A program made the position numbers and the translations under genes. From the IMG/VR virus record IMGVR_UViG_3300036774_000066, positions 64,001 to 128,000 of that record: a stretch of 64,000 nucleotides of DNA; one strand, given 5' to 3'. Positions 15,007-36,331 of this stretch are shown in pieces. The stretch comes from a virus. Positions within the stretch are counted from its first letter, which is position 1. Each line of letters starts with the position of its first letter. Under the pieces are notes generated by a model, which saw only the letters and a list, made by a program, of their open reading frames with translations, was not told the origin of the DNA and ran no database searches.

Positions 15007-15134
15007 AAAAAAGGAAAGAACCCCCTGCTCCCGGCGACCATTACCGTGTCTTCCACAACCGTTTGCGAGTTGCGCCTATTAAGTCATCGGTAAAATCGCA
15101 CCTGATAGGACAGGCAAGCATAAGGGTTCTTCCC
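15007..15134 (-). ncRNA. Candidate structured RNA A (multibranch, possible double pseudoknot, closed by long helix plus U-tract)
   Basis: GGGAAGAACCCTT/GGGGGTTCTTTCC plus TGCTT/GAGCA closing helix; inner stems CCTAT/ATAGG, CGCAACT/GGTTGTG, GAC/GTC; then TTTTTT. Confidence 0.6.
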
Positions 15135-15137
15135 GCA

Positions 15138-15866
15138 TCACTTTCTAAGGGTGAGTAAAAAGTAAAGAACTCTACTATCCAATGGCACTTCATTCTTAAT
15201 ACGCAAAGTCTCCACCAAACTAATAGGAATACTCTCTGGTTTCAAGACAGTTTCTAAGTTACCCATAAGCCCCAGATAATAGTCTGAAAATTTCGCTCCC
15301 CTTCGATTTTCCTTTTCTTTGAACTTGAAAAGAAAAGTCAAAACAGAAGAAAAAATCTCCCCTGCCAACATTCTCCTTCTTAACAAAAGGTACTCCTCAA
15401 TCAACTTTTCCTTAGACTCTCGCATTGCCTCAAACAACTCATACATCTTTTCGTGCCTCTCAAACAACTCAGTATACCAACGACCCAAAACAGCGGACAT
15501 CTTGATAAAGTACAAAAACTCATAGGCAGTCAGTAACTTCTTTTTTCCTTTCTCCGCCTCGGGACACGCATACCTCTCTACTGTTTTTGTCAGCTTGAGC
15601 CTCTTGACTTCCGATACATACTTAACAATGTCTGTCTCGTTATCAAACTTCCGATCTACCACATGAGAATCATTGGTTGTGACAATGATATAATCGGTAA
15701 ATCGGTACTGCATATTTCTGTCAACATCAGGTATTCTATCGTTTGGCTTGAGAAAATACATCACCTTACCTTTACAATCACTCCACTCAACGGACTCTAT
15801 ACGCTTATATCCGGGGAACAAAAAGTAAAGCAATTGCAAGGTATCTTTACTAAAGTAGATTTTCAT
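15138..15866 (-). CDS. Hypothetical protein (possible clamp-loader partner)
   Basis: ORF; near clamp-loader-like gene; function by context only. Confidence 0.55.
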   Translation of the reverse strand: MKIYFSKDTLQLLYFLFPGYKRIESVEWSDCKGKVMYFLKPNDRIPDVDRNMQYRFTDYIIVTTNDSHVVDRKFDNETDIVKYVSEVKRLKLTKTVERYACPEAEKGKKKLLTAYEFLYFIKMSAVLGRWYTELFERHEKMYELFEAMRESKEKLIEEYLLLRRRMLAGEIFSSVLTFLFKFKEKENRRGAKFSDYYLGLMGNLETVLKPESIPISLVETLRIKNEVPLDSRVLYFLLTLRK

Positions 15867-16042
15867 TCCATCCCAACTTCTTGATCCCCAAGACTCAGAT
15901 AGCCAGAATCGTCAAAATACCCTTCCTCCTCTTCATCAAAATCGCTTTCCTGCTCCTCTACTTCCTCCTCAGTAAACGCCTCTTCCTTCCAATACAACTG
16001 CCGCAACTCGTGAGAAGTAAACAGTGGATTTTCTATTGTCAT
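15863..16042 (-). CDS. Small highly acidic protein (59 aa, MTIENPLF...EEEEGYFDD)
   Basis: Below cutoff; ATGA overlaps at both ends. Confidence 0.6.
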   Translation of the reverse strand: MTIENPLFTSHELRQLYWKEEAFTEEEVEEQESDFDEEEEGYFDDSGYLSLGDQEVGME

Positions 16043-16518
16043 ACGAAAAACTGCCTTATTCTATCCCTCACTGGTAAGTCAGACTTTCCAATAAAATAAT
16101 TCAACGGATAAGAAGAAACTGCATGTCTGACTAATTCCTCGTCTGTTACCGACCCATCAGCAAACGACTCCTTCACAAACCGCAAACTATCTGCCTCTCT
16201 TTTCAACAATGTGGGGTACTTCTTTACAGTCTTAAACCTTGACAGCAAAATAGAGGAAATATTATCCTCAGACGCAAGACAAACAAGGGGAATAGTTGTC
16301 TCCTCTACGAACTTCAGCAACTTGGAATGGTATCTTCTCAATGCAGAAATATTTGACAATGCAACAGGCTCTTTCAATGTTATTCCTGAATATTCCCGTA
16401 TAAAGTCCTGTAATTCCTCCCGGTTAATAACAACATTTACTATAATCCCACAAGACGATATGTTCTGCTGCAAAGACACGATATTAGACGCAATGACTAA
16501 AGCAGGGTACTCGCTCAT
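16039..16518 (-). CDS. Degenerate clamp-loader (delta-prime/RFC-like) subunit
   Basis: KLLKFVEE...LVCLAS...ILLSRF resembles the LLK.LEE...SRC motif; no Walker A. Confidence 0.55.
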   Translation of the reverse strand: MSEYPALVIASNIVSLQQNISSCGIIVNVVINREELQDFIREYSGITLKEPVALSNISALRRYHSKLLKFVEETTIPLVCLASEDNISSILLSRFKTVKKYPTLLKREADSLRFVKESFADGSVTDEELVRHAVSSYPLNYFIGKSDLPVRDRIRQFFV

Positions 16519-16877
16519 TCACTTACCTTTTTCTCTTCCTCTATTACCCTGTTCGCTTCTTCGAGTCCGTCCAAAGCATCCTGAAACATCTTCCTGATTC
16601 CCTTATTGTCAAATTCCTCCGCTACCCACTTTGTATACTTCAAATCATTCTCCAATACCCACGGTAAAGTCTTTCCCCTATACTTACCAAAAGGAACAAC
16701 AAATTCCATCCATTTACCCGGCTGTGGTAGAAATTTAATGTACCCACAACCATGACAAAACCAGCCAATGTGCGGACCACACCGCTTGATATATGTCCGT
16801 AATGATTTACACTTTGGGCATGACCTATCATCACACTCCTGAATATGCCCATTCGGAAAATCCGTCAACTTGAGCAT
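16515..16877 (-). CDS. Zn-ribbon plus PFGKY(R)GK-domain protein (DUF3820-like)
   Basis: CPKC...C..CG; VPFGKYRGKTL..V...D..Y..W. Confidence 0.65.
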   Translation of the reverse strand: MLKLTDFPNGHIQECDDRSCPKCKSLRTYIKRCGPHIGWFCHGCGYIKFLPQPGKWMEFVVPFGKYRGKTLPWVLENDLKYTKWVAEEFDNKGIRKMFQDALDGLEEANRVIEEEKKVSE

Positions 16878-16886
16878 ACCTTACCC

Positions 16887-17432
16887 CTACACAAAGGATA
16901 ATGCCCGGCTCACCCAATTGCTAAGATACTTTACCTGTAAATTGGCAATGGAGAAAACTGACCCGCTCTGAATCTTATCCCCCAAATCTTTCATCACCAA
17001 GTCAATACAAAAGGAAACTCTCTTCTGTACGTAAGACTTTACTACAGTAGAAATATTACAGCTTGCCGCAGTTGCAAGGGTCTTAGGTCCAATCACTCCA
17101 TCCACAAAGACACCCAAAGACTTCTGCAAAAAACATGCTGCCTGAATCGGCCCATACAGCACACACGAATCAAAATGCACTCTATCAATTCTGTCAGGTA
17201 AAACATCGCACTTGCCAACAAGCCAATAGTCTGTTCTGTAAATATCTGCTACTTCTGAAGCAGATATATTCTTGACATCAGCAAAGGGAAGATGCATCCT
17301 GGCTCTATATGCACCATAAGAATTTTGTGTAATCCCAAAGTTCGTAGCCCCTCCATGATCTGTCGGGTCATTAACGTACCCACCCTCAAAAGCCAGCACA
17401 GAAGCCAAAGCAGAGTCAAAGTTCCTATTCAT
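16887..17432 (-). CDS. Endolysin, glycoside hydrolase family 108
   Basis: EGGYVNDPTDHGGATNFGIT, YRTDYW, DGVIGPKT. Confidence 0.92.
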   Translation of the reverse strand: MNRNFDSALASVLAFEGGYVNDPTDHGGATNFGITQNSYGAYRARMHLPFADVKNISASEVADIYRTDYWLVGKCDVLPDRIDRVHFDSCVLYGPIQAACFLQKSLGVFVDGVIGPKTLATAASCNISTVVKSYVQKRVSFCIDLVMKDLGDKIQSGSVFSIANLQVKYLSNWVSRALSFV

Positions 17433-17458
17433 ACGGTTACTCCATTCTACTAAGTTAT

Positions 17459-18457
17459 TTACATTCCCCAAGGCCATGCGCAATCTGATTCCCAATCGTA
17501 TGTTACTCCCTGTGGAAGATTTTTTATCATGTCTATTCCAATAGAATACCTCTCGTCTTCACTCAACTTGACCTTTACTATTTTGTCAATCTTATCCGTG
17601 TCACGCACCCTGTCAAGACTTACACGAAGTCCGCCCTTCAAAATAGCAACCTCTTTCTCCTTCGGGACATTAACCCACCCGTCAAAATACTCGTCAATAT
17701 CGTCAATCCTCTTGTGTGAAGGAACTACCTCAACTTTATGTAGATTATCCTCTTCATACAGGTTTGTCAACTTTTTCCTGCACTCCGAGATAATCTGACA
17801 AATCCTGTTGGCTGTCACCTTAAAAAAATCCGCTATTGCGAGAGGAGTCCAATCCTGTAAGTAAAGAAAATAGACCCAATAATGACAAAACCACACAGTA
17901 AATATGGGCTTTCTTTGTTCTACCCAATCAGATACAACTTGCCCATCAACCATACCCCACTTTTTGTATCTGTAAACATCAAACAACGGCTTATCCTTAT
18001 CCAAACCCTCATGAGTCCGTAACGTCCGAGAATTTGTAATCCTCTTTTTGGAAAGAACTTCCAACGCCTCCTGCATTATCAACTCACCCAAAACATTGAC
18101 ATTGTAAGGATCAGGAAATACATCATATATAGACATATCCCCATCATCACCGCCTCCAAGTGTAACTATCTTTACTGACCGCGCATTTTTCCTAAGAAGA
18201 TCAATCGCCTGATTTGCCATCCCGGTATACAAATAGCAAAACTTCGGGGCGGGAGGATTAGCGGTCTTTCCATACTCCTGCAAAAAATGGGACCGATGAA
18301 TCTTTTCAAGAAAAAACTCGTCAATAAAATCACCCATCTCCAGAAAGGAAGACATCACCGGAAACCGCTTGAATAACGAACAAGTAATGGGACGAAAAAA
18401 AGGCAGGGCTTCTTCAAACGTAAACGGAGCAGCAACGGCAATGGCGGGTGTATGCAT
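17459..18457 (-). CDS. Phage sigma70-family RNA polymerase sigma factor
   Basis: Region 2-like YLYTGMANQAIDLLRK; region 4 HTH TPLAIADFFKVTANRICQIISECRKKL. Confidence 0.72.
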   Translation of the reverse strand: MHTPAIAVAAPFTFEEALPFFRPITCSLFKRFPVMSSFLEMGDFIDEFFLEKIHRSHFLQEYGKTANPPAPKFCYLYTGMANQAIDLLRKNARSVKIVTLGGGDDGDMSIYDVFPDPYNVNVLGELIMQEALEVLSKKRITNSRTLRTHEGLDKDKPLFDVYRYKKWGMVDGQVVSDWVEQRKPIFTVWFCHYWVYFLYLQDWTPLAIADFFKVTANRICQIISECRKKLTNLYEEDNLHKVEVVPSHKRIDDIDEYFDGWVNVPKEKEVAILKGGLRVSLDRVRDTDKIDKIVKVKLSEDERYSIGIDMIKNLPQGVTYDWESDCAWPWGM

Positions 18458-18484
18458 TTACTCCTCCAACAAACTAAAAGGTTG

Positions 18485-18880
18485 TTATTTAGACAAAAGA
18501 TGTTTAAGTTCATCTTCAGATACTCCTAATCCTATAGACAATTTAGCTATAGTTTCGGTATTGACACCTCTGGTAACTCCACGGATAATCTTTGACAGGG
18601 ACATCTGAGAGATACCACAACGGAAAGCCAAGTCATGCTGCGAATACCCCAACTCAATCATCCTACCTTTTATATAGTTACCAAAAGCCGATGAATTTAC
18701 AGAAGAAAATAACTTCTCAAAATCCTGTTGAGGAATCGAGAGTTTTACGTGACTCCCATTTACAGAGGCAGAAACGTGGATACAATTTGCATCTTTGAAT
18801 AGATAATACCACGCCGTTGCATTACACACAAAGGTTTGACTTGATTTATCAGAATCAACTTTAATGCTTAATCGACTCAT
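18485..18880 (-). CDS. XRE-family HTH regulator
   Basis: GYSQHDLAFRCGISQMSLSKII.G...TIAKLS..LGVS. Confidence 0.8.
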   Translation of the reverse strand: MSRLSIKVDSDKSSQTFVCNATAWYYLFKDANCIHVSASVNGSHVKLSIPQQDFEKLFSSVNSSAFGNYIKGRMIELGYSQHDLAFRCGISQMSLSKIIRGVTRGVNTETIAKLSIGLGVSEDELKHLLSK

Positions 18881-19238
18881 GCTCTTTTCTCAATTCTTCC
18901 AAGATAAACCATCGAATCACTGACCCATGACAAAACCACCCACCCGGATGTTTGCAATCACACAGTAGAAAAAGATTCCCCTTCCGAGCTATCCCTACCA
19001 AAATATGAAACGCCGCTGCGAACTCCCTGTCCACAGCAAGCATAGATGAAAAATATCTTTTGTAAAGTCCACACGCTACATCCATCCCCCTTATATACAC
19101 AAACCCACAAGGAAGAAGAAATCTCGCCCAAAAAACCCACCACGGCAAAACTACATGCTTCTGCTCAAAAATGGACCCTCGCCCAATCTTGACCTCGTAC
19201 CTCCCCTTCCGATGGGACGATGATAGTATGTAAACCAT
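18861..19238 (-). CDS. DUF4326-like protein
   Basis: IGRGS...LLCDC.HP...CHG.VI. Confidence 0.6.
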   Translation of the reverse strand: MVYILSSSHRKGRYEVKIGRGSIFEQKHVVLPWWVFWARFLLPCGFVYIRGMDVACGLYKRYFSSMLAVDREFAAAFHILVGIARKGNLFLLCDCKHPGGWFCHGSVIRWFILEELRKEHESIKH

Positions 19239-19247
19239 GTATCCCTC

Positions 19248-19817
19248 TCACCTAATTACCAACACTCCTTTACGAATCATAATATTTCGCTTAGACAAAA
19301 CTCTCCCGTCTGCTCTAACGGAAGGCCCACGAGATACAGGGGAGACACGATTACTCAAGGAGGGATGCTGCACAACAGCAGTAGGAGAAATACTCGGAAT
19401 AGTCAACTCTCTTGACCAATAGCCACGATTGCCTATACCTACCCATACCCGATAACCCGTATCGGCTCTCACTGTGTCACTAATACACCCAATAAGACAC
19501 GTAACCGTGTCACAAGGAGGACGATTATTTCCACAAGTAGCAAATTCAACAGGAAGAGGAACCGTCAAATAGGAATGAGTCGCATACAGCGTCCATCTAT
19601 TATGTTCAAGTTCAAAAGTAAACATGCTATTCCCATAAAACCTTCCGTAGATAGCAACACCCCTCCCACATTGATATGTAGGAGTAAGTGAGGTAGGACC
19701 AAGAACCTTCACATAAACAGAATCCGTGTCCAGCATAGTAGGATTACCCAAACTATCAAGAACAACAGCACTTGACATACCACATATAACAAGAACAAGT
19801 GAAAGAACCTTACACAT
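19248..19817 (-). CDS. Secreted protein with signal peptide and basic C-terminal tail
   Basis: MCKVLSLVLVICGMSSA signal; Cys-rich; tail ...RADGRVL...RKGVLVIR. Confidence 0.65.
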   Translation of the reverse strand: MCKVLSLVLVICGMSSAVVLDSLGNPTMLDTDSVYVKVLGPTSLTPTYQCGRGVAIYGRFYGNSMFTFELEHNRWTLYATHSYLTVPLPVEFATCGNNRPPCDTVTCLIGCISDTVRADTGYRVWVGIGNRGYWSRELTIPSISPTAVVQHPSLSNRVSPVSRGPSVRADGRVLSKRNIMIRKGVLVIR

Positions 19818-19828
19818 GATACACCTCC

Positions 19829-21164: not shown

Positions 21165-21560
21165 TCAATAATCCTGCATCTTTGAAACCTGTTGGCACCA
21201 ATTCAATGCTCGCATATTCCTACCGTCCTCATAGCAGGAATTTCCAGCCTTATCACCAAGTTTACCAATAATCCTTTGCAAAAAGAAAATCATCTCCTGC
21301 TGCACCGACCTATGCTGTGTAACAATCAGCCCGACAATTGCATCCGAGTCCAGCCCCTCAAAATCAAAAGGGATTTTGCTTGCCATGTCAGCAAAATCCC
21401 TTACAAAACCCTTGTATCTGTCAATCTTTTTTCTTACTGATTCCCTACACGCACACGTCTGACAAACGACCTCACCTTTCTGTACAGGTCCAACATTCTC
21501 CACATACAAGGTAGTACCGATAGTCTCTGCTTCTTTACGGCAGATAAAACAGATTGACAA
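21165..21560 (-). CDS. Hypothetical protein with CxxC pairs
   Basis: ORF. Confidence 0.6.
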   Translation of the reverse strand: MSICFICRKEAETIGTTLYVENVGPVQKGEVVCQTCACRESVRKKIDRYKGFVRDFADMASKIPFDFEGLDSDAIVGLIVTQHRSVQQEMIFFLQRIIGKLGDKAGNSCYEDGRNMRALNWCQQVSKMQDY

Positions 21561-21818: not shown

Positions 21819-21847
21819 AATATAGTCTTTGAAAACTATAAAGTCAA
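21819..21847 (-). promoter_or_regulatory. Sigma70-type early promoter
   Basis: TTGACT-17-TATATT. Confidence 0.8.
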
Positions 21848-21867: not shown

Positions 21868-22515
21868 TTAACGGTATAACTCTTCTCTCCTTTTCTGGTA
21901 TTCGCAACGCTTTCGACACCATGACGCTTGCCACTTAGACCTTCTTGCATATTTCCGATGTAACTTATGCATCTGAGGAAGATTGTCGGCGCAAATATTA
22001 TCCCAAATATCGTGCCAAACCGCATCAAAACTCAAACCTTCCGGCTTATATTCCAACGCATCAGCATTGATGAAGTGAACCCTGCTATCTTTCTCGAAGA
22101 CAGGCTTCACCAGGGAAAGAACATCAGCAGATTTTTCTACAACAAAAGCCCTCTTGACAAACGGCTCTCCCCTCTCGTCAATCTTGTTAAGAACAACATC
22201 AAGAGTAATCCCTAACCCCAAGCCGTTAATCAAAACAGTCCCTTCTGCTGCGCGGAAAAAGGGGAACTGATCTCTAATCTCGTCAGGGGTATTTGACATT
22301 ACCATTGTTCCACCCCGCTTCAAAGCCGCGTATGTCCCTGCTGGCACATACCTACCTCCCGCAGAGGAAAAGGCTGCACGCATGGCTCCAAACCTCTCAG
22401 CCTCTTCCGAAACTGTAAAGGTACTTACTGACCAATCGCCAGATATTCCATCTGGAACATCAACCGGAATAACTTCGGGCAACTCACCTGTAAAATGCCA
22501 CGGCTTCATAATCAC
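21868..22515 (-). CDS. SAM-dependent methyltransferase (spermidine-synthase-like fold)
   Basis: VLINGLGLG, VVEKS, ADA, FDAVWHDIW. Confidence 0.78.
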   Translation of the reverse strand: MIMKPWHFTGELPEVIPVDVPDGISGDWSVSTFTVSEEAERFGAMRAAFSSAGGRYVPAGTYAALKRGGTMVMSNTPDEIRDQFPFFRAAEGTVLINGLGLGITLDVVLNKIDERGEPFVKRAFVVEKSADVLSLVKPVFEKDSRVHFINADALEYKPEGLSFDAVWHDIWDNICADNLPQMHKLHRKYARRSKWQASWCRKRCEYQKRREELYR

Positions 22516-22525
22516 ATCCTCATAG

Positions 22526-22677
22526 TTGACAGGAGGAAAAAGGGGGAGGGGTAAACTTGGTTAGATCAACAACAGACTGCCGCTTCAATGCAATCCCTGA
22601 CCTCACGGACAGGATGCCTTGGACTCCACGATCATCTGTCTCCCCTCCCAAGTATAGCCGATCCCCTCCCCTGTCAA
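22526..22677 (-). ncRNA. Candidate structured RNA B (long imperfect hairpin with alternative pairings)
   Basis: TTGACAGG/CCTGTCAA, GGGGAGGGG/CCCCTCCCC plus TTTTT, ACTTGG/CCAAGT, GACAGAT/GTCTGTT, TCCTG/CAGGG. Confidence 0.55.
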
Positions 22678-22901
22678 TCCAAGATTACTTTCTTTTCCCT
22701 CTTGTATCTTCGGGCTGTTCGCGCTTGCTCAATCTTATGAAGATGTGCCTCGACTCCCACATTGGTAGTCCTATCAAAGACAGAAACAATATGATACTTC
22801 CAAAATGAATACGCCAAAGCCTTGACCTGTCCATAGGTCTTTGCCTTGGTCTGTGAGGAAAGATGCAAGTCTTTGAATCTCTGTACACACTTTTGACACA
22901 T
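22674..22901 (-). CDS. Hypothetical protein
   Basis: ORF. Confidence 0.5.
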   Translation of the reverse strand: MCQKCVQRFKDLHLSSQTKAKTYGQVKALAYSFWKYHIVSVFDRTTNVGVEAHLHKIEQARTARRYKREKKVILD

Positions 22902-22918
22902 AAAAATTTCCTATCAGA

Positions 22919-23230
22919 TCACTCTAACAACAACTTATACCGCGTCAAAAACGTGATCTTCCAAGCATCAGCAATTGCAGTACCTCTTTTGAACTCGCTC
23001 ATGGCTTCCTGCAATTCTTTCACATGAGTAGAAATTTTCCCGCCCTCGATATTCAGCTTCTTTTGGGCAATGTGAAGCACCTGACGAAAAGCCTCACGTT
23101 GAATAACCTGCTCCCCCAACTCATTCCCGTAAACACCAAAGAAAGCCAACAGCCACGTACAGAACTCCTCATTGTAAATGGGAATCCCAATACTGGTGTA
23201 CAGCGCATCCAACTCCTCTAACTCAGACAT
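22919..23230 (-). CDS. Hypothetical protein
   Basis: ORF, GAGG RBS before ATG 23230. Confidence 0.55.
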   Translation of the reverse strand: MSELEELDALYTSIGIPIYNEEFCTWLLAFFGVYGNELGEQVIQREAFRQVLHIAQKKLNIEGGKISTHVKELQEAMSEFKRGTAIADAWKITFLTRYKLLLE

Positions 23231-23231
23231 A

Positions 23232-23447
23232 CTAACCTCTTTCCCTTTCTCTAACAATCACCTTCTGTCCTCCCGCCAACGTGTGAATCTTTGTATTACC
23301 CTCACTGCAAGGAACATACCGTATTGACGGATGATACCTCGCGGCATCAATCAACTCCTTCACCACCTCTCTCGGAACAGGGGCAACCATGTATTCCCCG
23401 TCACCCAAACACGCCCTTGCAATATCAACTGCTTCTTGTATTTTCAT
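23232..23447 (-). CDS. Hypothetical protein
   Basis: ORF, GGAG RBS. Confidence 0.5.
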   Translation of the reverse strand: MKIQEAVDIARACLGDGEYMVAPVPREVVKELIDAARYHPSIRYVPCSEGNTKIHTLAGGQKVIVRERERG

Positions 23448-23451
23448 CAGG

Positions 23452-23892
23452 CTATTCTCCCATGTACGGAACAATCTTCTCCCCATCCCAATACCGAACA
23501 GGCTTACCGTTATACCGAAGATACTTCACCATACGCTGAAAATGACTTGCAGTAAAATTCTTCACTGCCATGTGAGGAGTGAAATATTTCCCCTGCCTAA
23601 CCAAGTGACTACCACCGCAAGTCTCCTCACCTACGGAATCTCCTACTCCAGTATCCCGACAAGCATACATAATATCAGTCAAGAAATGCTTGTTAAACTT
23701 ACGCCAAGCCACAATGCAGAAGGTTATCCTGTTGTAAACTGCTTTTGGATTATCTACATCCTGCTGAAAAATTACCCATGTCGGCATACTTTCCGGGTCT
23801 GCTTTTCCCTTTTCCTCACAAGCCATAGCAGACTCAGAACTTTCATACTCTTCCCCGCATATCTCACAGGCATACTTAGTTATGATCTTCAC
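23452..23892 (-). CDS. Hypothetical protein with N-terminal Zn finger
   Basis: YACEICG...CE. Confidence 0.6.
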   Translation of the reverse strand: MKIITKYACEICGEEYESSESAMACEEKGKADPESMPTWVIFQQDVDNPKAVYNRITFCIVAWRKFNKHFLTDIMYACRDTGVGDSVGEETCGGSHLVRQGKYFTPHMAVKNFTASHFQRMVKYLRYNGKPVRYWDGEKIVPYMGE

Positions 23893-23960
23893 TGACCCTC
23901 CTTGTACACGTCAAGCAAGGCATCCAATTCCTGATTACATTTTTTCCAGTTGACTCCAAA
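23889..23960 (-). pseudogene. Orphan 3' gene fragment (FGVNWKKCNQELDALLDVYKEGQ*), probable original end of the 24550..24987 gene
   Basis: Startless frame after HNH stop; shares FG...WKK and a TTTGGA repeat with the upstream gene's end. Confidence 0.55.
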
Positions 23961-23961
23961 G

Positions 23962-24546
23962 TTACAAACTCAGGTGCGTAACTATTCTTTTCACCTGTTC
24001 CTTAAACTCCTCAACAGACATTGTATGCTTCATATAATTGCACCGTTTACAACAAGAAACACAGTTTTCTTTTACATAACCAACAGAGTTATCTAATCTG
24101 TCAATACCATTATGGGTTAAAGCAGCATGTCGAATCGCTTCTTCAGAGTACCTTTTTGAGTGTGCCGGTCCATAGGTAGTAACCATACTTGGGGACGCTC
24201 CGCAATAGAAGCAATCAGAAGTAACTATGCCCCTAATCTCTTCATTGGTCAATTCAAATCTTAACCCTCGCACCTCTGCTCCACGTCTATAATTATCTAC
24301 AAAACGATTAAGACCATGCTCACCTTTTCCCTTTCTTGTCCTTTTACTTATAGATAATCTAAGAATGCATCCACAAGATTTAGTTTCCTCGCCATGTCCT
24401 TTTGTCAAATCTTTTGACCGAATTATCTTTTCTTTTCCACAATCACACGCACATAAAAAACAAACACACTTTCCCTTATTCTCCACTCTTCGGAGAACAA
24501 CTAATTTCCCAATTCTCTGCCCAGTCAACTCTATAAATTTCGGCAT
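23962..24546 (-). mobile_element. Free-standing HNH homing endonuclease
   Basis: LTGQRIGKL...C.CDCG...TKSCGC; CFYCG...GIDRLDN..GY...NCVSCC..CN..K. Confidence 0.85.
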
Positions 24547-24549
24547 ATC

Positions 24550-24987
24550 CTACTCACACAGCTTGTCACAGTAATAGTCATATTTCTTCCAACTAAAGGA
24601 AAGAAATCCAAAAAATACCTTACAGAATAACCATGAGGCAATGTCCCCAGCAACATGACCACGATGATAAGGACAATTCTTATCATAGCCCGCTTCTTGC
24701 GATTTAGGAATTTGTTTCAAGGTATACATTTCTTCATACTTCCGGTCAAAGTCGTCGCATTCTGGTGTTTTCACTCCCATCCACTCGCATATCAACCATT
24801 CAACAATCTCGTGAATGAAAACACCTGCTTCGTACATCCACGCTTCCTTATTAGACAATTCGGGAAACGCCAACTTGTAATCGGTAATCCTGATCTGCAA
24901 TACCCCATTCTCGTCCTCATACCAATCCCCACAAGTTGTAAATCTGTGCTCTCTGTGTGGTATTGTCTTGACATTGATCTTTAACAT
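24550..24987 (-). CDS. Putative metalloprotein (HExxE)
   Basis: CGDW, FIHEIVE, CPYH.GH. Confidence 0.6.
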   Translation of the reverse strand: MLKINVKTIPHREHRFTTCGDWYEDENGVLQIRITDYKLAFPELSNKEAWMYEAGVFIHEIVEWLICEWMGVKTPECDDFDRKYEEMYTLKQIPKSQEAGYDKNCPYHRGHVAGDIASWLFCKVFFGFLSFSWKKYDYYCDKLCE

Positions 24988-25004
24988 AGCAAGAAATCCT
25001 TTGG

Positions 25005-25268
25005 TTATCCTTTTATGAGAAGAGATACGATCACAACGAGGAGAAAAATCAAAGAGGAGACAAAGCAGACAGACCTATTAGTCAACCGGATATTGTAACT
25101 ATTCCGGTCCTTCCATCCCTCTGCATACCCTATGAAACGGGCATACCTCACCAACGCCTCAAGGTCCGTCTTCTCCTTGTCAAGGTGAAGATGCTGCTTG
25201 TCAACTGCATCTTGAATTATATCAGCCTCAGACATAGCTGAAATAGCAGACTTTCCACCGCCCCTCAT
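25005..25268 (-). CDS. Hypothetical protein with C-terminal TM helix
   Basis: Hydrophobic C-terminus. Confidence 0.55.
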   Translation of the reverse strand: MRGGGKSAISAMSEADIIQDAVDKQHLHLDKEKTDLEALVRYARFIGYAEGWKDRNSYNIRLTNRSVCFVSSLIFLLVVIVSLLIKG

Positions 25269-25582
25269 ACGATGTCCTTGAATTTCACTTCAATTTTATC
25301 AATTACAATATGATTCGCAATAGTTGGAGCTACAATTATGGTTTCCGGCACAACTTCCGACACTTCTACAGAAGCCACAGGAGCCGCCGCAACAACTTCT
25401 GACTCCGTAGTCTTTTCCGACTCCGGCTCCGGCTGCTTGACTTCAACACAGGCAGCACTACGAGGGGCAACCCGACCACATGCAGGGCTTGCACACTGCC
25501 ACGTATGCTCATGCTCCTTGACGTGAGGACAACCTTCCTTACTGACACCGCATGTTGATGCATGAGGACATACGAAATTCAT
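25265..25582 (-). CDS. Cys/His-rich hypothetical protein
   Basis: CPH..C...CPH...H.H..C..C. Confidence 0.6.
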   Translation of the reverse strand: MNFVCPHASTCGVSKEGCPHVKEHEHTWQCASPACGRVAPRSAACVEVKQPEPESEKTTESEVVAAAPVASVEVSEVVPETIIVAPTIANHIVIDKIEVKFKDIV

Positions 25583-25617
25583 AGACTATCCTTTCTCTTT
25601 ACAGATGTTAAAAACAA

Positions 25618-26438: not shown

Positions 26439-26470
26439 AAAAGAAGTGGCTGGCATTACACCAGCCACGC
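26439..26470 (-). terminator. Intrinsic terminator
   Basis: GTGGCTGG-loop-CCAGCCAC plus TTCTTTT. Confidence 0.75.
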
Positions 26471-27576: not shown

Positions 27577-27605
27577 AATATAACCTATTTCAAAAGAAAA
27601 GTCAA
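27577..27605 (-). promoter_or_regulatory. Sigma70-type early promoter
   Basis: TTGACT-17-TATATT. Confidence 0.8.
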
Positions 27606-31274: not shown

Positions 31275-31303
31275 AATATACAACGAATCAAGGGAAAAGT
31301 CAA
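31275..31303 (-). promoter_or_regulatory. Sigma70-type early promoter
   Basis: TTGACT-17-TATATT; IHF-like TTTCAATGACTTA at 31333-31345. Confidence 0.8.
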
Positions 31304-31351
31304 TAGTTTTCAAAACTTTTTTCTAACCTCTGTAAGTCATTGAAAACAAAT

Positions 31352-31383: not shown

Positions 31384-31418
31384 ATCACCATTCCACAACA
31401 ACCTTTTAGGAAATAAGG

Positions 31419-32231
31419 CTAAGTCGTACACTCCTTCAAAACTTCCTGCATCGCAGCAACTCCCACAGCATCCCCAGACGATTGACAGTCTGCCATAATT
31501 GACTGAGTATAGCGAGAATGGTAGTGATCCCTAATCAAGTCTTTCTTGCGTGTAAACCACCCTCCAATATGAGGAGGATAGACTACTTCTTTTCCTACTG
31601 CCCGTGCTCCTGTTGAATCCGGGGGAACCTGTGCCACAATATCTCGCCCGTTAATCACACGAGTACAGTCAACAGGAAGCATATTATACTGGTCCCTAAA
31701 GTCCTTCGTCCCTGCCCTTGGACACCCGAAAAAGATTGCTGAGTGTGGTATGTCAAGCTGCTTCCCAACATACCCAGAGCAAAGCGTTCCTAACGCCCCA
31801 CCCCTGGAATGACCTGTAATCAGAAGACTTTTCAGCTTCCAGAACCTCCAAAAACTTCCAGCACTCTTCTTGGTCACATGCTCTACATCTTCCTCACCAA
31901 TAGACTGCTTGATATACTGCAACAAATACTGAGTAACCGAAGGCTCAAAGTATTCCCATGATGTAAAGAATCCCTTATGCACAACATCACTTTCCCATTC
32001 AGACTTTCCAGCCAAAGGCAAAATATCAAAGTTAGACACCCACCCAAGATCATCTGACGTTGGACAAAAGGCAATCACAATTCGATCAGAAAATTCTGCT
32101 ATAAAGGCATAGTCAGTATCGTTCCACATAGGAGTAAAAATCAAACTGTCCGCTACAAGAGGGTGCGACGAATCCTCTGGCTTATGAGAAGCCCTCTCTG
32201 CAAACCGCCATGCATCTGCAATTGCTTTCAT
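31419..32231 (-). CDS. Class 3 lipase (alpha/beta hydrolase)
   Basis: VHKGF, ITGHSRGGAL, FGCPR.G, RV.N.RDIV..VPP, DH. Confidence 0.85.
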   Translation of the reverse strand: MKAIADAWRFAERASHKPEDSSHPLVADSLIFTPMWNDTDYAFIAEFSDRIVIAFCPTSDDLGWVSNFDILPLAGKSEWESDVVHKGFFTSWEYFEPSVTQYLLQYIKQSIGEEDVEHVTKKSAGSFWRFWKLKSLLITGHSRGGALGTLCSGYVGKQLDIPHSAIFFGCPRAGTKDFRDQYNMLPVDCTRVINGRDIVAQVPPDSTGARAVGKEVVYPPHIGGWFTRKKDLIRDHYHSRYTQSIMADCQSSGDAVGVAAMQEVLKECTT

Positions 32232-32241
32232 AAATCATCTC

Positions 32242-32919
32242 TTAACATCTGGAAAATCCACACGTACACGAAACACAGCCAGACTCATGCCGTAATTTCG
32301 CTCTACAGTCAGGGCAAAGTCCTTGACTTACCCAAAAATCTTCCCCTCTCCCCTCGTCACCAACAACCCTATGGGGTATAACTCCCAATCGTTCTGCCTT
32401 CTCAACAATTGACTCTTCCTTGTATTTCTGTTCCTCAACTTGATGTATGCGAACTTCTCTTGCCTCAATAGACTTTTCTCTAAGGTCTTCCGTCGCAGAA
32501 AAAATCGCCTTCAGTTCCCCTTGATGCTGTTCAAAAAACTTTTGCGCTTGTAAAGTCTTCTTCATTGCAGACGCTAAAGCCCGCGAACAAGAGGAATTTC
32601 CTGTCTTCTTAAACGCCTCATCCTTTCCGGCACGGTATCGTGCTGTCGGACACACCTCTGACTCCAATTGGTCAATAATCTCCTCAATAGGAGTTCCCCT
32701 CTGTAAGTGCAAAGAGACAAGCCGCCCCGTCATCTTTGTACTTGACGCACACCCACCCTTAGAGGATGATCCACAAAACACCTCTATCAACCGTACCTTA
32801 TCGTGCCAATTAAACTTAATAGAGAAGAATGCGGCACCACAACCTGTTTCTTCTCTGAATGTAAGTCCAATGGTAGGATTATCTCTGTGAACTCTTGACA
32901 GATTTGTAGTGTCATCCAT
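32242..32919 (-). CDS. TSCPD-domain protein (class II RNR C-terminal, NrdJb-like) with terminal Zn ribbon
   Basis: TGCG, EVF...KGGC, GRLVSL.LQ.G...EII.QL...C, SSC..A; CPDC...ESGC..C.CGFSRC. Confidence 0.8.
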   Translation of the reverse strand: MDDTTNLSRVHRDNPTIGLTFREETGCGAAFFSIKFNWHDKVRLIEVFCGSSSKGGCASSTKMTGRLVSLHLQRGTPIEEIIDQLESEVCPTARYRAGKDEAFKKTGNSSCSRALASAMKKTLQAQKFFEQHQGELKAIFSATEDLREKSIEAREVRIHQVEEQKYKEESIVEKAERLGVIPHRVVGDEGRGEDFWVSQGLCPDCRAKLRHESGCVSCTCGFSRC

Positions 32920-33410
32920 CAGAACTTCTCTCTTTCCTCTGTAAACATTTTATCCGTGACCTCTTTACACTTTAACTCGTCCACATTCGGAAAAATACCC
33001 ATCATGTGCTCGACAAAGCACAGAGTATTCTTTACCATCGCTTGCGGGTCAAGTTTGGTAAGGTCTAACTTGTAAACATCCCCATATCTCCATGTTCCCT
33101 TATTTGCATACTTAGTTCCAAAAAACTCCTTGTGAATCTCAGTCACCGAGTGCATTAACTCAAGCTGCTCCGGCACATCAGGATCAGCACAACACAAAAA
33201 TCCCTGAATCATACAATCGGCAAGGTCACGCATTGTCAAGCCTTTAACTTCAGTCTTTCCACGCTCCCCTTGGTCTGTCCACATCTGACCATTATAGGGA
33301 CGGTCCCTCGAATTGTCATAGTCAGACGATCCAAGAGTTGCAGAAAGTAAATGATCCAACTTCTTTTCAAAAGCTGGATCATCTACATCGACCACCGGAA
33401 CACCCTGCAT
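32919..33410 (-). CDS. Hypothetical protein
   Basis: ORF. Confidence 0.6.
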   Translation of the reverse strand: MQGVPVVDVDDPAFEKKLDHLLSATLGSSDYDNSRDRPYNGQMWTDQGERGKTEVKGLTMRDLADCMIQGFLCCADPDVPEQLELMHSVTEIHKEFFGTKYANKGTWRYGDVYKLDLTKLDPQAMVKNTLCFVEHMMGIFPNVDELKCKEVTDKMFTEEREKF

Positions 33411-33411
33411 A

Positions 33412-33849
33412 CTATCCCTTTGAAAAATCCGTGAGTTCCCCTACCCTCTTGACAAGTCTATCCTTGATCGTCGGGGCTTTCTTCAGTCGCGGATTCTTGT
33501 CATTGACCTCAATATACCCCTGCCGATTCTCAATGTGCTTCCACACCTCGCATCTTTGCAGATGCATAAGAAACGGCACAATGGCTGTGAATCTGCGAGT
33601 TACCCGGTCTTCCTGCTCTGTAAAGTCCAAGAAGGAAGTTGTACTCCGAAACGTGTACTTCGTAGACCGCATCCAGAAGCCTCCATTGGGCATCCTCTCA
33701 AGCACAAGAGTAATAGGCTTTCCTCCTATGGCTCGAAAAAGATGTATGTCTTCCCCCTTGACTGCGACCTGAAAGTAACCCTCCCCAATCAATCCGGCAA
33801 CTGCCGCCTTCGTTGACATACGCTTAACAACAGACTTAGCAGCACTCAT
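33412..33849 (-). CDS. Hypothetical protein
   Basis: ORF. Confidence 0.6.
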   Translation of the reverse strand: MSAAKSVVKRMSTKAAVAGLIGEGYFQVAVKGEDIHLFRAIGGKPITLVLERMPNGGFWMRSTKYTFRSTTSFLDFTEQEDRVTRRFTAIVPFLMHLQRCEVWKHIENRQGYIEVNDKNPRLKKAPTIKDRLVKRVGELTDFSKG

Positions 33850-34247
33850 TTTGTCAACCTCCTTACTTCAACACGTTTAGGTTTAATCAACTCCTCCACC
33901 TCAAGATGTATGCTACATGCCTTGTTTACAGCAGATACAAGTTCCTTCACCTGATTGTAACATGCAACATTTTCAGATACCCATATTGACGTATAAACTC
34001 TAATCCTGCTCCTCTTCTCCTTTGTCTCTCCCTCAGACTCCGCTGCATCTCTCTTGGAAAATCCCAATTTCTTTCTCCGTTTGTAAAACAAACTCATGTC
34101 CAACTTGAACTTTGGATGCGCCTCCTCAAACTGTGTAAAAGTAGCAGTAGGATTTTCTCTCAAAAAACGATCTACAAGACCGTAATTGATCTTCCTACGC
34201 TTCTTTACTTCCGATACACCTAACTCAGCCACAGCGTCCGTTTCCAT
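33846..34247 (-). CDS. Basic hypothetical protein (possible DNA-binding)
   Basis: K/R-rich; FL.ENP.A...YKRRKKLG. Confidence 0.55.
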   Translation of the reverse strand: METDAVAELGVSEVKKRRKINYGLVDRFLRENPTATFTQFEEAHPKFKLDMSLFYKRRKKLGFSKRDAAESEGETKEKRSRIRVYTSIWVSENVACYNQVKELVSAVNKACSIHLEVEELIKPKRVEVRRLTK

Positions 34248-34280
34248 AGCAACATCCTTTCTTCTTACAACATCATGAGT

Positions 34281-34357
34281 AAAAAAGGAGTCCTGTATAG
34301 AGGCCCATCCTCACCCTGCAAGGAGCAAACAAGAGAGCAAAGAGGTACAGGACTCCC
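34281..34357 (-). ncRNA. Candidate structured RNA C (terminator-like helix enclosing a ~48-nt insert)
   Basis: GGAGTCCTGTA/TACAGGACTCC (11 bp) plus TTTTTT; inner CCTC/GAGG, TTTGC/GCAGG, pyrimidine loop with CTCCTT. Confidence 0.5.
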
Positions 34358-34362
34358 ACCCG

Positions 34363-34554
34363 TCAAAGCTGTTTCTGAAATGTACTCCCAGAAGGAAAAC
34401 TGTTCGGCAACTTGATGTCATACGTGGTATCAGATATAACCTTCTGACCCGGAGAACAAAAATCACTGGCACTAACAGGGTCACTAAGATCATCAAGGAT
34501 AGAAATACACTCATCGCTCCCCGACTCGTTACTGCAATGGATAATGCGAACCAT
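34363..34554 (-). CDS. Hypothetical protein
   Basis: GGAG RBS. Confidence 0.45.
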   Translation of the reverse strand: MVRIIHCSNESGSDECISILDDLSDPVSASDFCSPGQKVISDTTYDIKLPNSFPSGSTFQKQL

Positions 34555-34556
34555 AA

Positions 34557-35141
34557 TTACTCCCTTATGTCAAGAGATTCCGACTCAAACTTCTCAAACG
34601 ACTTCATCCCCTTGATCTTCCCGGCCAACGCCTTACTAACCTTGTTGTACCAGGCAATATCCTTCTGACGCTTCTTGACCGTTTTGTTATACTCAGTCAC
34701 GAAAGCCAGAAACGCAGCATGAAAATCCTTTCGCCTCTTCCGCATATTATTGGTCCCGGTAATCAATCTCTCCCTCACGGCCTGCCGCCACTTGACAAGA
34801 TCATCAACCGTATTATCCTCAACTGCCTTTGCTTCCTGCACACAATGAAGAGCACTTTCCAAGTGAAGATTTAGAAACTCAGTAGAAAAAGACTTGCCAT
34901 GCGTCCATCTCTGACGCAGAAACTCCATCGTTCCTTCCGGGTCAAGTCCGATTCTCGCTCCTTCAGCAAAAATTCCTTCATACAACAACTTACGGTCTTT
35001 CCGAGCATTCTCCTTGACAAAATCATCTGCGATCCTTTTTGCACTATTGTCTATCTCAACAACCCGCTTTACATCATCAACATCAACGGTCTTCCTGACC
35101 TTAGCAACAGGGTTTCTTCTTACAACTTTCGTAGCCATCAT
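34557..35141 (-). CDS. Hypothetical helical protein
   Basis: AGGAG RBS. Confidence 0.6.
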   Translation of the reverse strand: MMATKVVRRNPVAKVRKTVDVDDVKRVVEIDNSAKRIADDFVKENARKDRKLLYEGIFAEGARIGLDPEGTMEFLRQRWTHGKSFSTEFLNLHLESALHCVQEAKAVEDNTVDDLVKWRQAVRERLITGTNNMRKRRKDFHAAFLAFVTEYNKTVKKRQKDIAWYNKVSKALAGKIKGMKSFEKFESESLDIRE

Positions 35142-35153
35142 ACACTCCTTCGG

Positions 35154-35507
35154 TTATCCGTTAATGGGGAAAAACGGCTCGTCACACTGCTCCAAACGTA
35201 CTTCCTCTGAAAGTGACCTCTGATACTTCTTACAAAAGCCAATACACCCTTCCTCAAGTGGAACATCCAAGTAAGTACACCCTTTACACGAAACACTCTC
35301 CACCTTGTAGTATTTGTATCCCCGTGCTATTCGCTTGGAGAAAAACGACCCGACAGAAGGTGCCGCCATCCACTCCTTCACTACCTCTTCCGAAACATCA
35401 TGATACTCATATAACGATCCGTTTTTGAACTTGACCTGAAGAACTTTTTTCGCAGGATTATGTGCGTATGCCTCAATGTTGGAAGAAGTAACCGGACTCA
35501 GCTTCAT
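35154..35507 (-). CDS. KTSC-domain protein with C-terminal Cys cluster
   Basis: VTSSNI.......L.V.F.NGS.YEY..V....W..A.SVGSFF...I. Confidence 0.88.
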   Translation of the reverse strand: MKLSPVTSSNIEAYAHNPAKKVLQVKFKNGSLYEYHDVSEEVVKEWMAAPSVGSFFSKRIARGYKYYKVESVSCKGCTYLDVPLEEGCIGFCKKYQRSLSEEVRLEQCDEPFFPING

Positions 35508-35534
35508 TTTCTCTCCTTTTATGGGTTCCCTTGA

Positions 35535-35556
35535 TAATACGTAAAAACACAAAAAA
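35535..35556 (-). promoter_or_regulatory. Putative phage-sigma promoter TTTT-N11-CGTATTA
   Basis: Upstream of KTSC gene. Confidence 0.55.
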
Positions 35557-35582
35557 GGGGAAGAGCTTTCACTCCTCCCCTC
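35551..35582 (-). terminator. Intrinsic terminator ending candidate RNA D
   Basis: AGGGGAGGAGT-GAAA-GCTCTTCCCCT plus TTTTT. Confidence 0.8.
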
Positions 35583-35790
35583 CGGTCAAGCTGCCGTGCG
35601 ACAAAGCCGCTGCTCTACTTTGCCGCGTTACCCCACTACGGGCCTACACTTTTGTTGATAGAGCGTAGTGGCTCCACCCTTTTGTGTGCAGGGGCGAGAT
35701 GTTGGTGCCCTGTAAGTTTCGGCAACTTTCTCTAACGAACCGGGCATCCTTCGGGAAAACCCCGTAAGGCACGCGCTGGTCCGCTCTCTG
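35551..35790 (-). ncRNA. Candidate stand-alone ~235-nt structured RNA D
   Basis: Flanked by promoter motif and terminator; GC-rich; stems GCGGACC/GGTTCGT, CGGG/CCCG, AAGTTGCCG/CGGCAGCTT, CCACTACG/CGTAGTGG, GCGGCAAAG/CTTTGTCGC. Confidence 0.7.
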
Positions 35791-35791
35791 T

Positions 35792-35813
35792 TAATACGCT
35801 GACCTCTCCAAAA
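35792..35813 (-). promoter_or_regulatory. Putative phage-sigma promoter TTTT-N11-CGTATTA
   Basis: Directly upstream of RNA D. Confidence 0.6.
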
Positions 35814-35817
35814 ATCA

Positions 35818-36219
35818 TCAGGACTTAGGCTTGTACTTTCGCAACAGACGACCATTACAATACGTCCCGGCTTTGTCCCATTGCCAAGGAGCATACCGAA
35901 ATACTGCTACCTCAACAGAATCCCCCTTCACCACATTGGCAAACTGACGGTCCTCGGAAGAAAAAGTCACGACCTCGTTGCCAATGTCAAGATCAACTGC
36001 AAAGGAAAATGTACCAGAGGGAAGCCCACCACCGGCACTACGCCCGGCAACCACAGACATACTCATGTTGGAACACGCCGTTACCTTTCCGATAAACTCC
36101 TTCCGAGAAAAGAACTTGTACCCCGCAGTATAGATAAGACTCCCGATGATTCCCACGATCACGACCACAACCATCAACTCAATGAGAGTGAAACCACGCA
36201 ACCACTTCTTCTGAAACAC
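35818..36219 (-). CDS. Type IV prepilin-like protein (N-terminal cleavage/methylation motif)
   Basis: GTG 36219 with GGGAG RBS; MFQKKWLRG|FTLIELMVVVVIVGII. Confidence 0.8.
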   Translation of the reverse strand: MFQKKWLRGFTLIELMVVVVIVGIIGSLIYTAGYKFFSRKEFIGKVTACSNMSMSVVAGRSAGGGLPSGTFSFAVDLDIGNEVVTFSSEDRQFANVVKGDSVEVAVFRYAPWQWDKAGTYCNGRLLRKYKPKS

Positions 36220-36243
36220 AACAGGCTCCCTTCTGTAAATGTG

Positions 36244-36331
36244 AAAAGGTACAAGGATAACTGGTTTTCGTGGCACACACCACGCGGGGAATCCCGTAAC
36301 CGCCTATTAGCCCTTCGCTATCCCTGTACCC
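36244..36331 (-). ncRNA. Candidate structured RNA E (14-bp helix plus U-tract enclosing a 3-way junction)
   Basis: GGTACAGGGATAGC/GTTATCCTTGTACC plus TTTT; inner GGTT/AACC, CGGG/CCCG, CGTGGT/GCCACG. Confidence 0.55.

Follow-up and report, generated by a model that had tools for sequence, protein, structure and literature searches.

Four stem-and-U-run elements between phage genes

The window analysed here comprises bases 64001-128000 of the 156.6-kb IMG/VR record IMGVR_UViG_3300036774_000066, which represents an uncultured phage. Nearly all genes of the window lie on its minus strand, and the four elements at issue, E1-E4, are therefore read on this coding strand (Table 1). E1 starts 3 nt past the stop codon of a 242-aa gene and precedes a UDG gene starting at 14991. 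The stop codon of a 75-aa ORF lies within an outer 8-bp helix of E2, which also encloses the U-run, and a methyltransferase gene follows (start 22506). E3 starts 6 nt past the stop of a 63-aa gene (34363-34554), with the next gene starting at 34247, and E4 starts 12 nt past the stop of a 72-aa ORF (36343-36561), with a pilin-like gene downstream (GTG start at 36219). All four elements begin 2-12 nt past a stop codon, and their U-runs end 15-35 nt ahead of the next start codon, much as the original prediction had placed them.

Table 1. Coordinates of the elements and neighbouring features, with folding energies in kcal/mol
Feature	Position	Strand	5' arm	3' arm	Insert	U-run	Fold (region; energy; z)	Span of closing helix (energy)
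E1	15007..15134	-	15123-15134 GGGAAGAACCCU	15013-15024	98 nt, 15025-15122	U6, 15007-15012	15000-15140; -52.4; -3.4	122 nt (-51.0)
E2	22526..22677	-	22663-22671 GGGGAGGGG	22543-22551 CCCCUCCCC	111 nt, 22552-22662	C then U5, 22537-22541	22520-22685; -67.8; -2.8	129 nt (-56.5)
E2 outer helix		-	22670-22677 UUGACAGG	22526-22533 CCUGUCAA
E3	34281..34357	-	34346-34356 GGAGUCCUGUA	34287-34297	48 nt, 34298-34345	U6, 34281-34286	34275-34362; -33.3; -3.1	70 nt (-28.9)
E4	36244..36331	-	36317-36330	36248-36261	55 nt, 36262-36316, three small hairpins	U4, 36244-36247	36238-36336; -40.5; -4.4	83 nt (-38.4)
Promoter-like motif GTTTG-N12-CGTATTA, 62 nt upstream of E1	15197..15203	-
Short-loop terminator	35557..35580	-
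Short-loop terminator	12769-12792
Short-loop terminator	26446-26468
Short-loop terminator	37822-37857
Short-loop terminator	48359-48394
Short-loop terminator	50973-50998

The presence of four intergenic elements with a stem, a U-run and an oversized loop is confirmed, as is the predicted arrangement of a closing helix followed by a U-run. The closing helices are G+C-rich (12 bp in E1, 9 in E2, 11 in E3 and 14 in E4, with 6-8 G-C pairs each) and abut runs of U4-U6, the junction reading CC then U6, C+U5, U6 and U4, respectively. A CC at the end of the 3' arm directly before U4-U6 is common to E1-E4 and the 12 short terminators of the genome. In each of the four, no local hairpin can abut the U-run and the long-range helix alone places a stem there; the best fold lacking this helix is 10-18 kcal/mol less stable than the closed form. 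When the arms are joined by a tetraloop they reach -18.6 to -21.7 kcal/mol (E1, as a GAAA hairpin, -18.6), compared with -13 to -26 kcal/mol for ordinary terminators. E3 is overall a rod-like hairpin in which all 11 closing pairs are Watson-Crick; its near-continuous helix of ~23 bp is interrupted on the 3' side by a 7-nt bulge.

The 111 intergenic U4+ runs of the coding strand were scanned for this architecture, with 12 dinucleotide shuffles of the 200 nt upstream of each run as a control. This intergenic, coding-strand set contained a long-span stem at 4 of the 111 runs and a short hairpin at 12, and the shuffles yielded 0 long-span stems and 2 short hairpins in total. The opposite strand gave no long-span match, either here or in the relative G001, and coding sequence gave about 1-3 per genome. 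No such intergenic elements were found in T4 (first 50 kb) or SPP1 (44 kb), scanned identically; such elements are thus no generic feature at four in 64 kb, and random loop growth offers no obvious explanation.

Short terminators and the junctions in relatives

Ordinary short-loop terminators occur in the window, as had been claimed; they span 22-40 nt, with stems of 9-18 bp, energies of -13 to -26 kcal/mol and runs of U4-U7. We compared terminator positions with those of G001, the sole sequenced relative, and drew on further relatives for the E1 and E2 junctions. Most short terminators recur at the corresponding position in G001, and none of the four long-span elements (0/4) keeps its position there. 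The proposal that E1-E4 form a class of their own is thus borne out by their distinct geometry and by this lack of positional retention.

The four elements all lie at junctions or in blocks that differ from G001. At the E1 junction, three relatives have a gap of 3-22 nt and no element, and G001 carries an 81-aa ORF and a tRNA-Met gene. A second RNA slot differs as well, holding a tmRNA in G001 (Rfam, 128.6 bits) and a plain terminator in this phage. At the E2 junction, the upstream gene overlaps, abuts or lies 14 nt from the methyltransferase gene in its five nearest homologues. With gaps, a tRNA or overlapping genes in place of E1 and E2, a conserved role for the elements finds no support.

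Inserts and the promoter-like motif before E1

The inserts look unconstrained. Their predicted length of 48-110 nt holds (48-111 nt), but the independent folding ascribed to them does not: taken alone and compared with composition-matched shuffles, they give z scores of -1.4 (E1), -2.0 (E2), +0.07 (E3) and -0.8 (E4), spanning -2.0 to +0.1. Shuffles fold as well and the inserts are not conserved, two of the three outcomes that the original prediction had named as counting against it. We found no common k-mer or motif among E1-E4, no common inner topology among their folds, and no Rfam family match even at E<=5. The geometry is alike in all four and no similarity exists between the elements, just as originally described. 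Comparison of the elements with both phage genomes by blastn-short returned only noise, each is a single copy, and exact stem-arm scans of viral (E2, E4), genome (E1) and metagenome (E3) collections yielded no related copy, the few matches being due to chance, with unrelated inserts and no U-run. The E1 3' arm and the end of the upstream gene resemble each other over 14 nt of T-rich coding sequence. The inserts have 50-58% G+C compared with 43% for the genome and its intergenic DNA, which hints at RNA-level selection or a foreign origin. Pairing between the E1 insert and the E1 arms is avoided to a degree that none of 300 shuffles reached.

ARAGORN detected no tRNA in the window or genome, and no T-arm or D-arm is seen in the folds of E1-E4. 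Nor does a 7-nt T-loop hairpin precede any 3' arm, and on these features a tRNA or tRNA-like identity was rejected.

The promoter-like motif before E1 falls within the final codons of the 242-aa gene, and E1 alone of the four elements has it upstream. The pattern TTT-N-CGTATTA has 10 matches on the coding strand, against 0 on the opposite one. Relatives without E1 have the motif as well, there within conserved codons. Should it be active, the transcript bearing the UDG, orf172 and RRM genes would have E1 as its first structure; the RRM gene encodes a protein with an RRM_1 domain (82.6 bits). A sigma-70-like match was found only at E2, with an off-optimal 15-nt spacer.

Proposed terminators with expanded loops and competing explanations

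On the best explanation, in which our confidence is about even, E1-E4 are intrinsic terminators of recent, lineage-specific origin whose loops have expanded. Like canonical intrinsic terminators, they have a G+C-rich stem running onto U4-U6, on the coding strand and past a stop codon; unlike them, their loop is 48-111 nt and partly branched rather than 3-10 nt, and they therefore fall outside standard terminator definitions. The stem would be a normal one, with the usual loop of 3-8 nt replaced by lineage-specific sequence. With RNA polymerase on the U-run, the 3' arm would pair with a 5' arm made 60-120 nt earlier, and formation of the G+C-rich helix right against the U-run would release part of the transcripts. 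The remainder would read through into the next gene, itself without a promoter, and the elements would lower expression in steps along the long unidirectional gene arrays, leaving the upstream message with a stably folded 3' end. From the observed geometry, strand and intergenic specificity, energetics, canonical-like arms and U-run, and absence from the relatives' junctions, we infer that E1-E4 terminate transcription, and that they do so partially. Each directly precedes a gene with no space for a promoter in between, so any termination must be partial and would then be attenuation in a loose sense. The inserts are probably not functional RNA but acquired sequence or evolutionary filler. Catalogues of proven terminators, in which loops measure 3-10 nt, count against this interpretation (bioRxiv 10.64898/2026.05.29.728758). 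So do the G+C-rich inserts, the position of E1 past a probable promoter in the relative's tRNA slot, and the lack of such elements in T4 and SPP1. A further point against it is that the 5' arms are partly occupied in the nascent RNA before the 3' arm appears, with P(unpaired) of 0.32-0.76.

If the inserts are instead functional, E1-E4 might be cargo small-RNA genes or 3'-UTR-derived sRNAs of ~80-180 nt that act in trans, the closing helix serving as both a terminal P1 stem and a terminator, with release by termination or processing. We regard this as unlikely overall, and E1 as its best candidate. T4 RNAs C and D are examples of small stable RNAs that occupy phage tRNA slots, and E1-E4 resemble such RNAs in having a long terminal stem that closes a variable centre. 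E1 also sits at exactly the junction that bears tRNA-Met in G001, 62 nt downstream of a motif with a 10-to-0 strand bias, and the second slot with its G001 tmRNA, the G+C enrichment of the inserts and the pairing avoidance of the E1 insert point the same way, as does the presence in the same genome of a strongly structured stand-alone RNA candidate, RNA D (z -6.0). Unlike the phage RNAs, however, E1-E4 have no ARAGORN tRNA, T-arm, D-arm or other tRNA feature and no sequence family; shuffles fold as well as their inserts do alone, no homologue or second copy emerged from Rfam, G001 or the stem-arm scans, and the motif, found before E1 only, lies in codons conserved in relatives that lack E1. 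The bolder version, in which orphan structured small RNAs are swappable cargo of the lineage and occupy the relative's tRNA and tmRNA slots, with a stem that doubles as a terminator and a role in trans once they are released from operon transcripts (for example, as host-defence decoys or as RRM/KTSC partners), strikes us as decidedly improbable. The original prediction had proposed conditional attenuators or, alternatively, processing stems of the RNase III type. In such an attenuator an RRM or KTSC protein or a ligand would bind the insert and decide whether the closing helix forms, and we find this highly improbable. Riboswitches and protein-dependent attenuators, such as the T-box, TRAP and PyrR types, likewise place structured RNA with a stem and U-run directly before the regulated gene. 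Every element directly precedes a gene that depends on read-through, the 5' arms of E3 and E4 are partly sequestered in nascent RNA, and E1 would, with an active motif, stand at the head of the transcript that includes the RRM gene. In E1-E4, however, the terminator stem is the outermost helix and not a separate downstream hairpin, and there is neither a conserved aptamer, by Rfam, nor a consistent antiterminator. The best upstream partners of the 5' arms reach -6 to -8 kcal/mol versus -19 to -21 kcal/mol for the terminator duplex and are not significant (p 0.37-0.83). Arm-insert pairing stands out only for the E2 3' arm, which can pair with another G-run copy inside the insert (-18.8 kcal/mol, p 0.007), and marginally for the E4 5' arm (p 0.047); the E2 pairing is itself of the terminator type. 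Given no significant upstream antiterminator, no consistent internal switch and a closed form favoured so strongly, the claim of conditionality is not sustained. A common RRM/KTSC reader fares no better, since the elements share no motif or topology that one protein could recognise and the RRM gene, like the UDG and methyltransferase genes, is kept in relatives without such a leader. No test supports a coordinated system of RNA control, and the undescribed regulatory layer that had been proposed would, if true, matter more than termination.

Explanations that dispense with termination or with RNA function were weighed as well. E1-E4 may be RNase III-type processing or 3'-stabilising stems, which would separate messages by being cleaved or by stopping 3' exonucleases, the U-run being incidental; we think this quite improbable. 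In T7, too, RNase III sites are found past a stop codon and ahead of the following ribosome-binding site, where they form irregular hairpins in a polycistronic phage message, and E3, with its helix of ~23 bp and asymmetric 3'-side bulge, resembles them most closely. E1 and E2 reach ~17-19 bp if flanking pairs are counted. Sites of the T7 type have about two turns of near-continuous double helix, often with an internal loop; E3 has its ~23 bp and bulge, and the closing helices of E1, E2 and E4 give way to junctions after 9-14 bp. Closing helices of 9-14 bp that lead into junctions are short for an RNase III substrate. The hairpins of T7 early mRNA (R0.3, R1.1 and others) lack a U-run and are kept across T7-like phages; the stems of E1-E4 all end exactly at a U-run, on the coding strand only, neither of which a cleavage site needs, and none is conserved. 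The elements might also have arisen at the DNA level, as MITE-like inverted-repeat insertions or scars of illegitimate insertion in a terminator loop, with no added RNA function. Terminal inverted repeats of 9-14 bp around unrelated G+C-rich sequence, at junctions that all differ from the relative, would be consistent with such an origin, but we judge it very unlikely: the elements are single copies in this genome and G001 with only chance matches in collections, inspection revealed no target-site duplication or direct repeats beside the arms, and coding-strand restriction with a one-sided U-run is unexpected for a MITE. Identity as a MITE or REP-like repeat was rejected on the single copies and the missing target-site duplication. 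T4-type phages carry PeSL cassettes, repeated and sequence-conserved motifs that include an early promoter (PMC2839356, PMC4122927). These too are terminator-like stem-loops by small accessory genes in variable regions of a large phage genome; E1-E4, unlike them, have no common sequence, and only E2 has a promoter-like match. Identity as PeSL cassettes was rejected, there being no repeated, conserved promoter and stem-loop sequence.

If E1-E4 do terminate transcription as terminators with expanded loops, standard finders that allow loops of up to ~10 nt would overlook roughly one in four stop signals of the lineage, and a terminator stem can tolerate a branched insert of 50-110 nt. Both points would be of use, in phage annotation and in the design of terminators bearing an RNA payload. 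Position-stable short terminators next to long-span ones with fast turnover would also offer a small view of how the regulatory punctuation of phages evolves. As expected from fast turnover of a terminator variant, G001 has long-span stem-and-U-run elements of its own at non-homologous sites, among them one at 36877-36970, which lies 4 nt past a stop codon and has a stem of 11 bp and U6.

Long-span stem and U-run elements of the replication module

The phage record spans 156,609 bp at 43% G+C, and the window covers its bases 64001-128000. Since nearly all genes have minus-strand orientation, that is the strand on which the four intergenic elements considered here (E1 to E4) were read. They fall in a replication module that encodes a family A DNA polymerase, a DnaB-like helicase, an SNF2 helicase, a 5'-3' exonuclease and an ATP-dependent ligase, together with a UDG-family protein, an RRM protein and a KTSC protein. 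The RRM gene lies at 13476-13739 and the KTSC gene at 35154-35552. A search of the phage collection yielded no close cultured phage, the polymerase being at most 26% identical to that of any record. The single relative in IMG/VR, G001, is 167,660 bp long with about 70% protein identity; scans with the UDG and polymerase proteins, and with an alignment of each, returned nothing further, and a set of 5.8 billion proteins added a few short contigs. The lineage is rare.

Each element consists of a G+C-rich closing helix that encloses an insert and abuts a U-run. With corrected gene ends, a stop codon lies 2-12 nt ahead of each of the four, and 15-35 nt separate the end of its U-run from the next start codon, which leaves no room for a promoter ahead of the following gene. 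A type IV prepilin-like leader with an N-methylation motif (MFQKKWLRGFTLIE) marks the protein encoded after E4, which matches Pfam N_methyl and the PHROG annotation 'pilin'.

To place these elements among other sites, the 200 nt upstream of every run of four or more U residues were folded, and sites were kept if a helix of 6 bp or more abutted the run and the enclosed structure reached -0.38 kcal/mol per nt or lower. The coding strand gave about 20 distinct sites, mostly 22-44 nt hairpins that are ordinary terminators, along with E1 to E4 and one intragenic site; the opposite strand gave three short bidirectional terminators and no long-span site. Among 111 intergenic U-runs, 4 long-span and 12 short sites were found, against totals of 0 and 2 in twelve dinucleotide shuffles. 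In the last 30-60 nt before each of the four U-runs no local hairpin reaches the run, and therefore only the long-range helix can. The scan and its shuffle and opposite-strand controls all confirm the elements as an observation, and the original prediction described them correctly as a helix and U-run set between a stop codon and the next gene. Applied to T4 (first 50 kb) and SPP1 (44 kb, 43.7% G+C), the scan gave no intergenic long-span element. Set against this small baseline, the frequency in the present phage, where such elements make up about one quarter of the stem and U-run sites, does not look generic.

Coordinates of the elements and associated features (window numbering unless G001 is named)
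Feature	Position	Strand	Description
E1	15013-15134	minus	closing helix 12 bp; insert 98 nt; U6 at 15007-15012
E2	22543-22671	minus	closing helix 9 bp (8 G-C); insert 111 nt; C+U5, the U5 at 22537-22541; outer 8-bp helix brackets U-run
E3	34287-34356	minus	closing helix 11 Watson-Crick bp; insert 48 nt; U6 at 34281-34286
E4	36248-36330	minus	closing helix 14 bp; insert 55 nt; U4 at 36244-36247
Gene before E3	34363-34554		corrected end; start three bases past preceding stop codon
Gene after E4	35818-36219	minus	133-aa pilin-like protein; GTG start at 36219
Promoter-like sequence, E2 5' side	22640-22677	minus	TTGACA-N15-TATACT
TTT-N(9-13)-CGTATTA copies	12726, 13420, 15197, 28894, 35535, 35792, 51567; others outside window	minus	mostly in gaps just after terminators
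TTGACT-N17-TATATT, three identical	21819-21847, 27577-27605, 31275-31303	minus	sigma-70-like; intergenic gaps
Hairpin and U-run sites inside ORFs	21370-21400, 8797-8840		G001 86714-86742, 73759-73789
Block with methyltransferase and E2	21868-25600		about 3.7 kb; no counterpart at syntenic position in G001
Block with E3 and E4	33000-41300		almost devoid of G001 orthologues
RNA D	35551-35790	minus	structured-RNA candidate
Spot syntenic to G001 tmRNA	48306-48515		ordinary terminator at 48359-48394 only
G001 long-span element (clearest)	G001 36877-36970		11-bp stem; 72-nt insert; U6; 4 nt after stop codon, 24 nt before next gene
G001 tRNA-Met (CAT)	G001 80197-80271		preceded by 81-aa ORF
G001 tmRNA	G001 108278-108693		full length; Rfam RF00023, 128.6 bits
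Non-coding sequence before G001 tmRNA	G001 108694-108935		about 240 nt; strongly folding

Arms, inserts and their turnover

The arms look like terminator stems. When closed by a GAAA loop they fold at -18.6 to -21.7 kcal/mol, inside the range of the short terminators of the same genome, with which they share a CC directly before the U-run, and forming the closing helix lowers the energy by 10-18 kcal/mol relative to the best alternative fold. The inserts had been described as independently folding, a claim that did not hold up: their stability when folded alone does not exceed that of dinucleotide shuffles (z of -1.4, -2.0, +0.07 and -0.8 for E1 to E4). Their topologies are unlike one another, one forming a three-way junction, one a rod, one a bulged rod and one a set of three small hairpins, and they have no k-mer in common beyond chance. 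Searches of each element against both phage genomes with blastn-short gave only noise, with no likeness among the elements or to other sequence in either genome, and blastx of the inserts revealed no protein remnant. Rfam assigned no family to the elements, whether the whole window was searched at the gathering score or the short loci at E<=5; ARAGORN found no tRNA in them, and a tRNA-type identity was rejected for want of any such features. The small ORFs that flank the elements lack the mutual homology that a cassette would predict. The sole positive signal from the inserts is their G+C content, 50-58% versus 43% for both the genome and its intergenic DNA.

No element homologous to E1-E4 is present in G001 or in the handful of short related contigs. 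At the E1 junction, between a 242-aa gene and the UDG gene, the gap measures 5 nt in a 71% relative, 3 nt in a 50% relative and 22 nt in a more distant one, and G001 has an ORF and a tRNA gene there. The methyltransferase downstream of E2 has 760 homologues, and in its five nearest contexts the upstream gene overlaps it, abuts it or lies 14 nt away. E1 is the only element outside variable blocks that have no G001 counterpart. For at least 10 of the short terminators G001 has a terminator in the matching place, whereas its own long-span stem and U-run elements lie at unrelated sites, so the architecture is a recurring habit of the lineage in which single elements are young and replaceable. Two hairpin and U-run sites inside ORFs also keep their positions in G001, one with an identical tail, and may be intragenic terminators or pause sites.

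Possible functions of the elements

We give about even chances to the view that E1 to E4 are intrinsic terminators with greatly expanded loops and fast turnover, which would partially terminate transcription inside long unidirectional operons and would leave stable 3' ends on the upstream RNA. Control of such stops by a protein or ligand, the conditional attenuation raised in the original prediction, is the least likely reading, since no antiterminator design emerged from the 120 nt upstream or from the inserts. The best upstream partners of the 5' arms reach -6 to -8 kcal/mol, compared with -19 to -21 for the terminator duplex, and are no better than shuffles (p 0.37-0.83). The 3' arm of E1 does resemble the end of the upstream gene, but that copy and the 5' arm pair no better than shuffles. 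The 5' arms are to some extent paired in the nascent RNA (unpaired probability 0.32-0.76), as would be expected of random sequence. Pairing between insert and arm is unremarkable except in E2, where the 3' arm has a further possible partner in a second G-run, GGGAGGGGAG, and the resulting fold would again be a terminator. None of composition-controlled folding, motif sharing, switch design and conservation supports the wider claim of a coordinated RNA layer that the RRM and KTSC proteins would read.

That the elements are cargo or the source of 3'-derived small RNAs seems doubtful, and would concern mainly E1. In its favor, a putative promoter motif (CGTATTA class) lies 62 nt upstream of E1, within the final codons of the 242-aa gene, and the same slot holds a tRNA in G001; together these keep the small-RNA reading of E1 alive. 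If the motif is active, E1 would either be the first structure of the UDG/orf172/RRM transcript or make up the body of a roughly 180-nt small RNA. Its activity is uncertain, however, because relatives that lack E1 carry the motif at the same place, where it coincides with the conserved codons R-I-K-N-E-V-P. RNase III-type processing stems are an unlikely alternative to expanded-loop terminators, and insertion of inverted repeats at the DNA level is slightly more so, given that no element has a second copy in either phage genome and no target-site duplication is visible. Mobile repeats were also rejected: the arm-pattern matches, 0 in viral, 3 in genome and 4 in metagenome collections, were all chance, with unrelated inserts and no U-run.

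A promoter nested in the loop fails as a general explanation, as only E2 has such a sequence, with 11 of 12 matches, a short spacer and an overlap with the upstream ORF stop codon; the idea was dropped because the second copy of the G-run, downstream of that sequence, could still close a terminator. The 5' side of E2 also carries four G-runs, GGGG-A-GGGG-N13-GGG-A-GGGG, from which an RNA G-quadruplex could arise and compete with the stem.

Promoter motifs, RNA-gene slots and RNA D

The genome has 10 copies of the TTT-N(9-13)-CGTATTA motif on its coding strand and none on the other, and the motif is likely a phage-specific promoter. Only one exact copy is found in G001, so the -10-like element there probably differs. 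Beside this class, the three identical sigma-70-like sequences suggest a set of host-polymerase (early) promoters.

The phage studied here has no tmRNA or tRNA at all. The G001 tRNA in the E1 slot and the G001 tmRNA show that RNA genes enter these junctions, and the E1 junction is a hotspot for their gain.

RNA D begins just past a CGTATTA motif and finishes in an ordinary terminator, and no PHROG matches the overlapping 88-aa ORF. RNA D folds at a predicted -109 kcal/mol, far better than chance (z of -6.0), and has 58% G+C; E1 to E4 are much weaker structured-RNA candidates beside it, and it stands on its own evidence.
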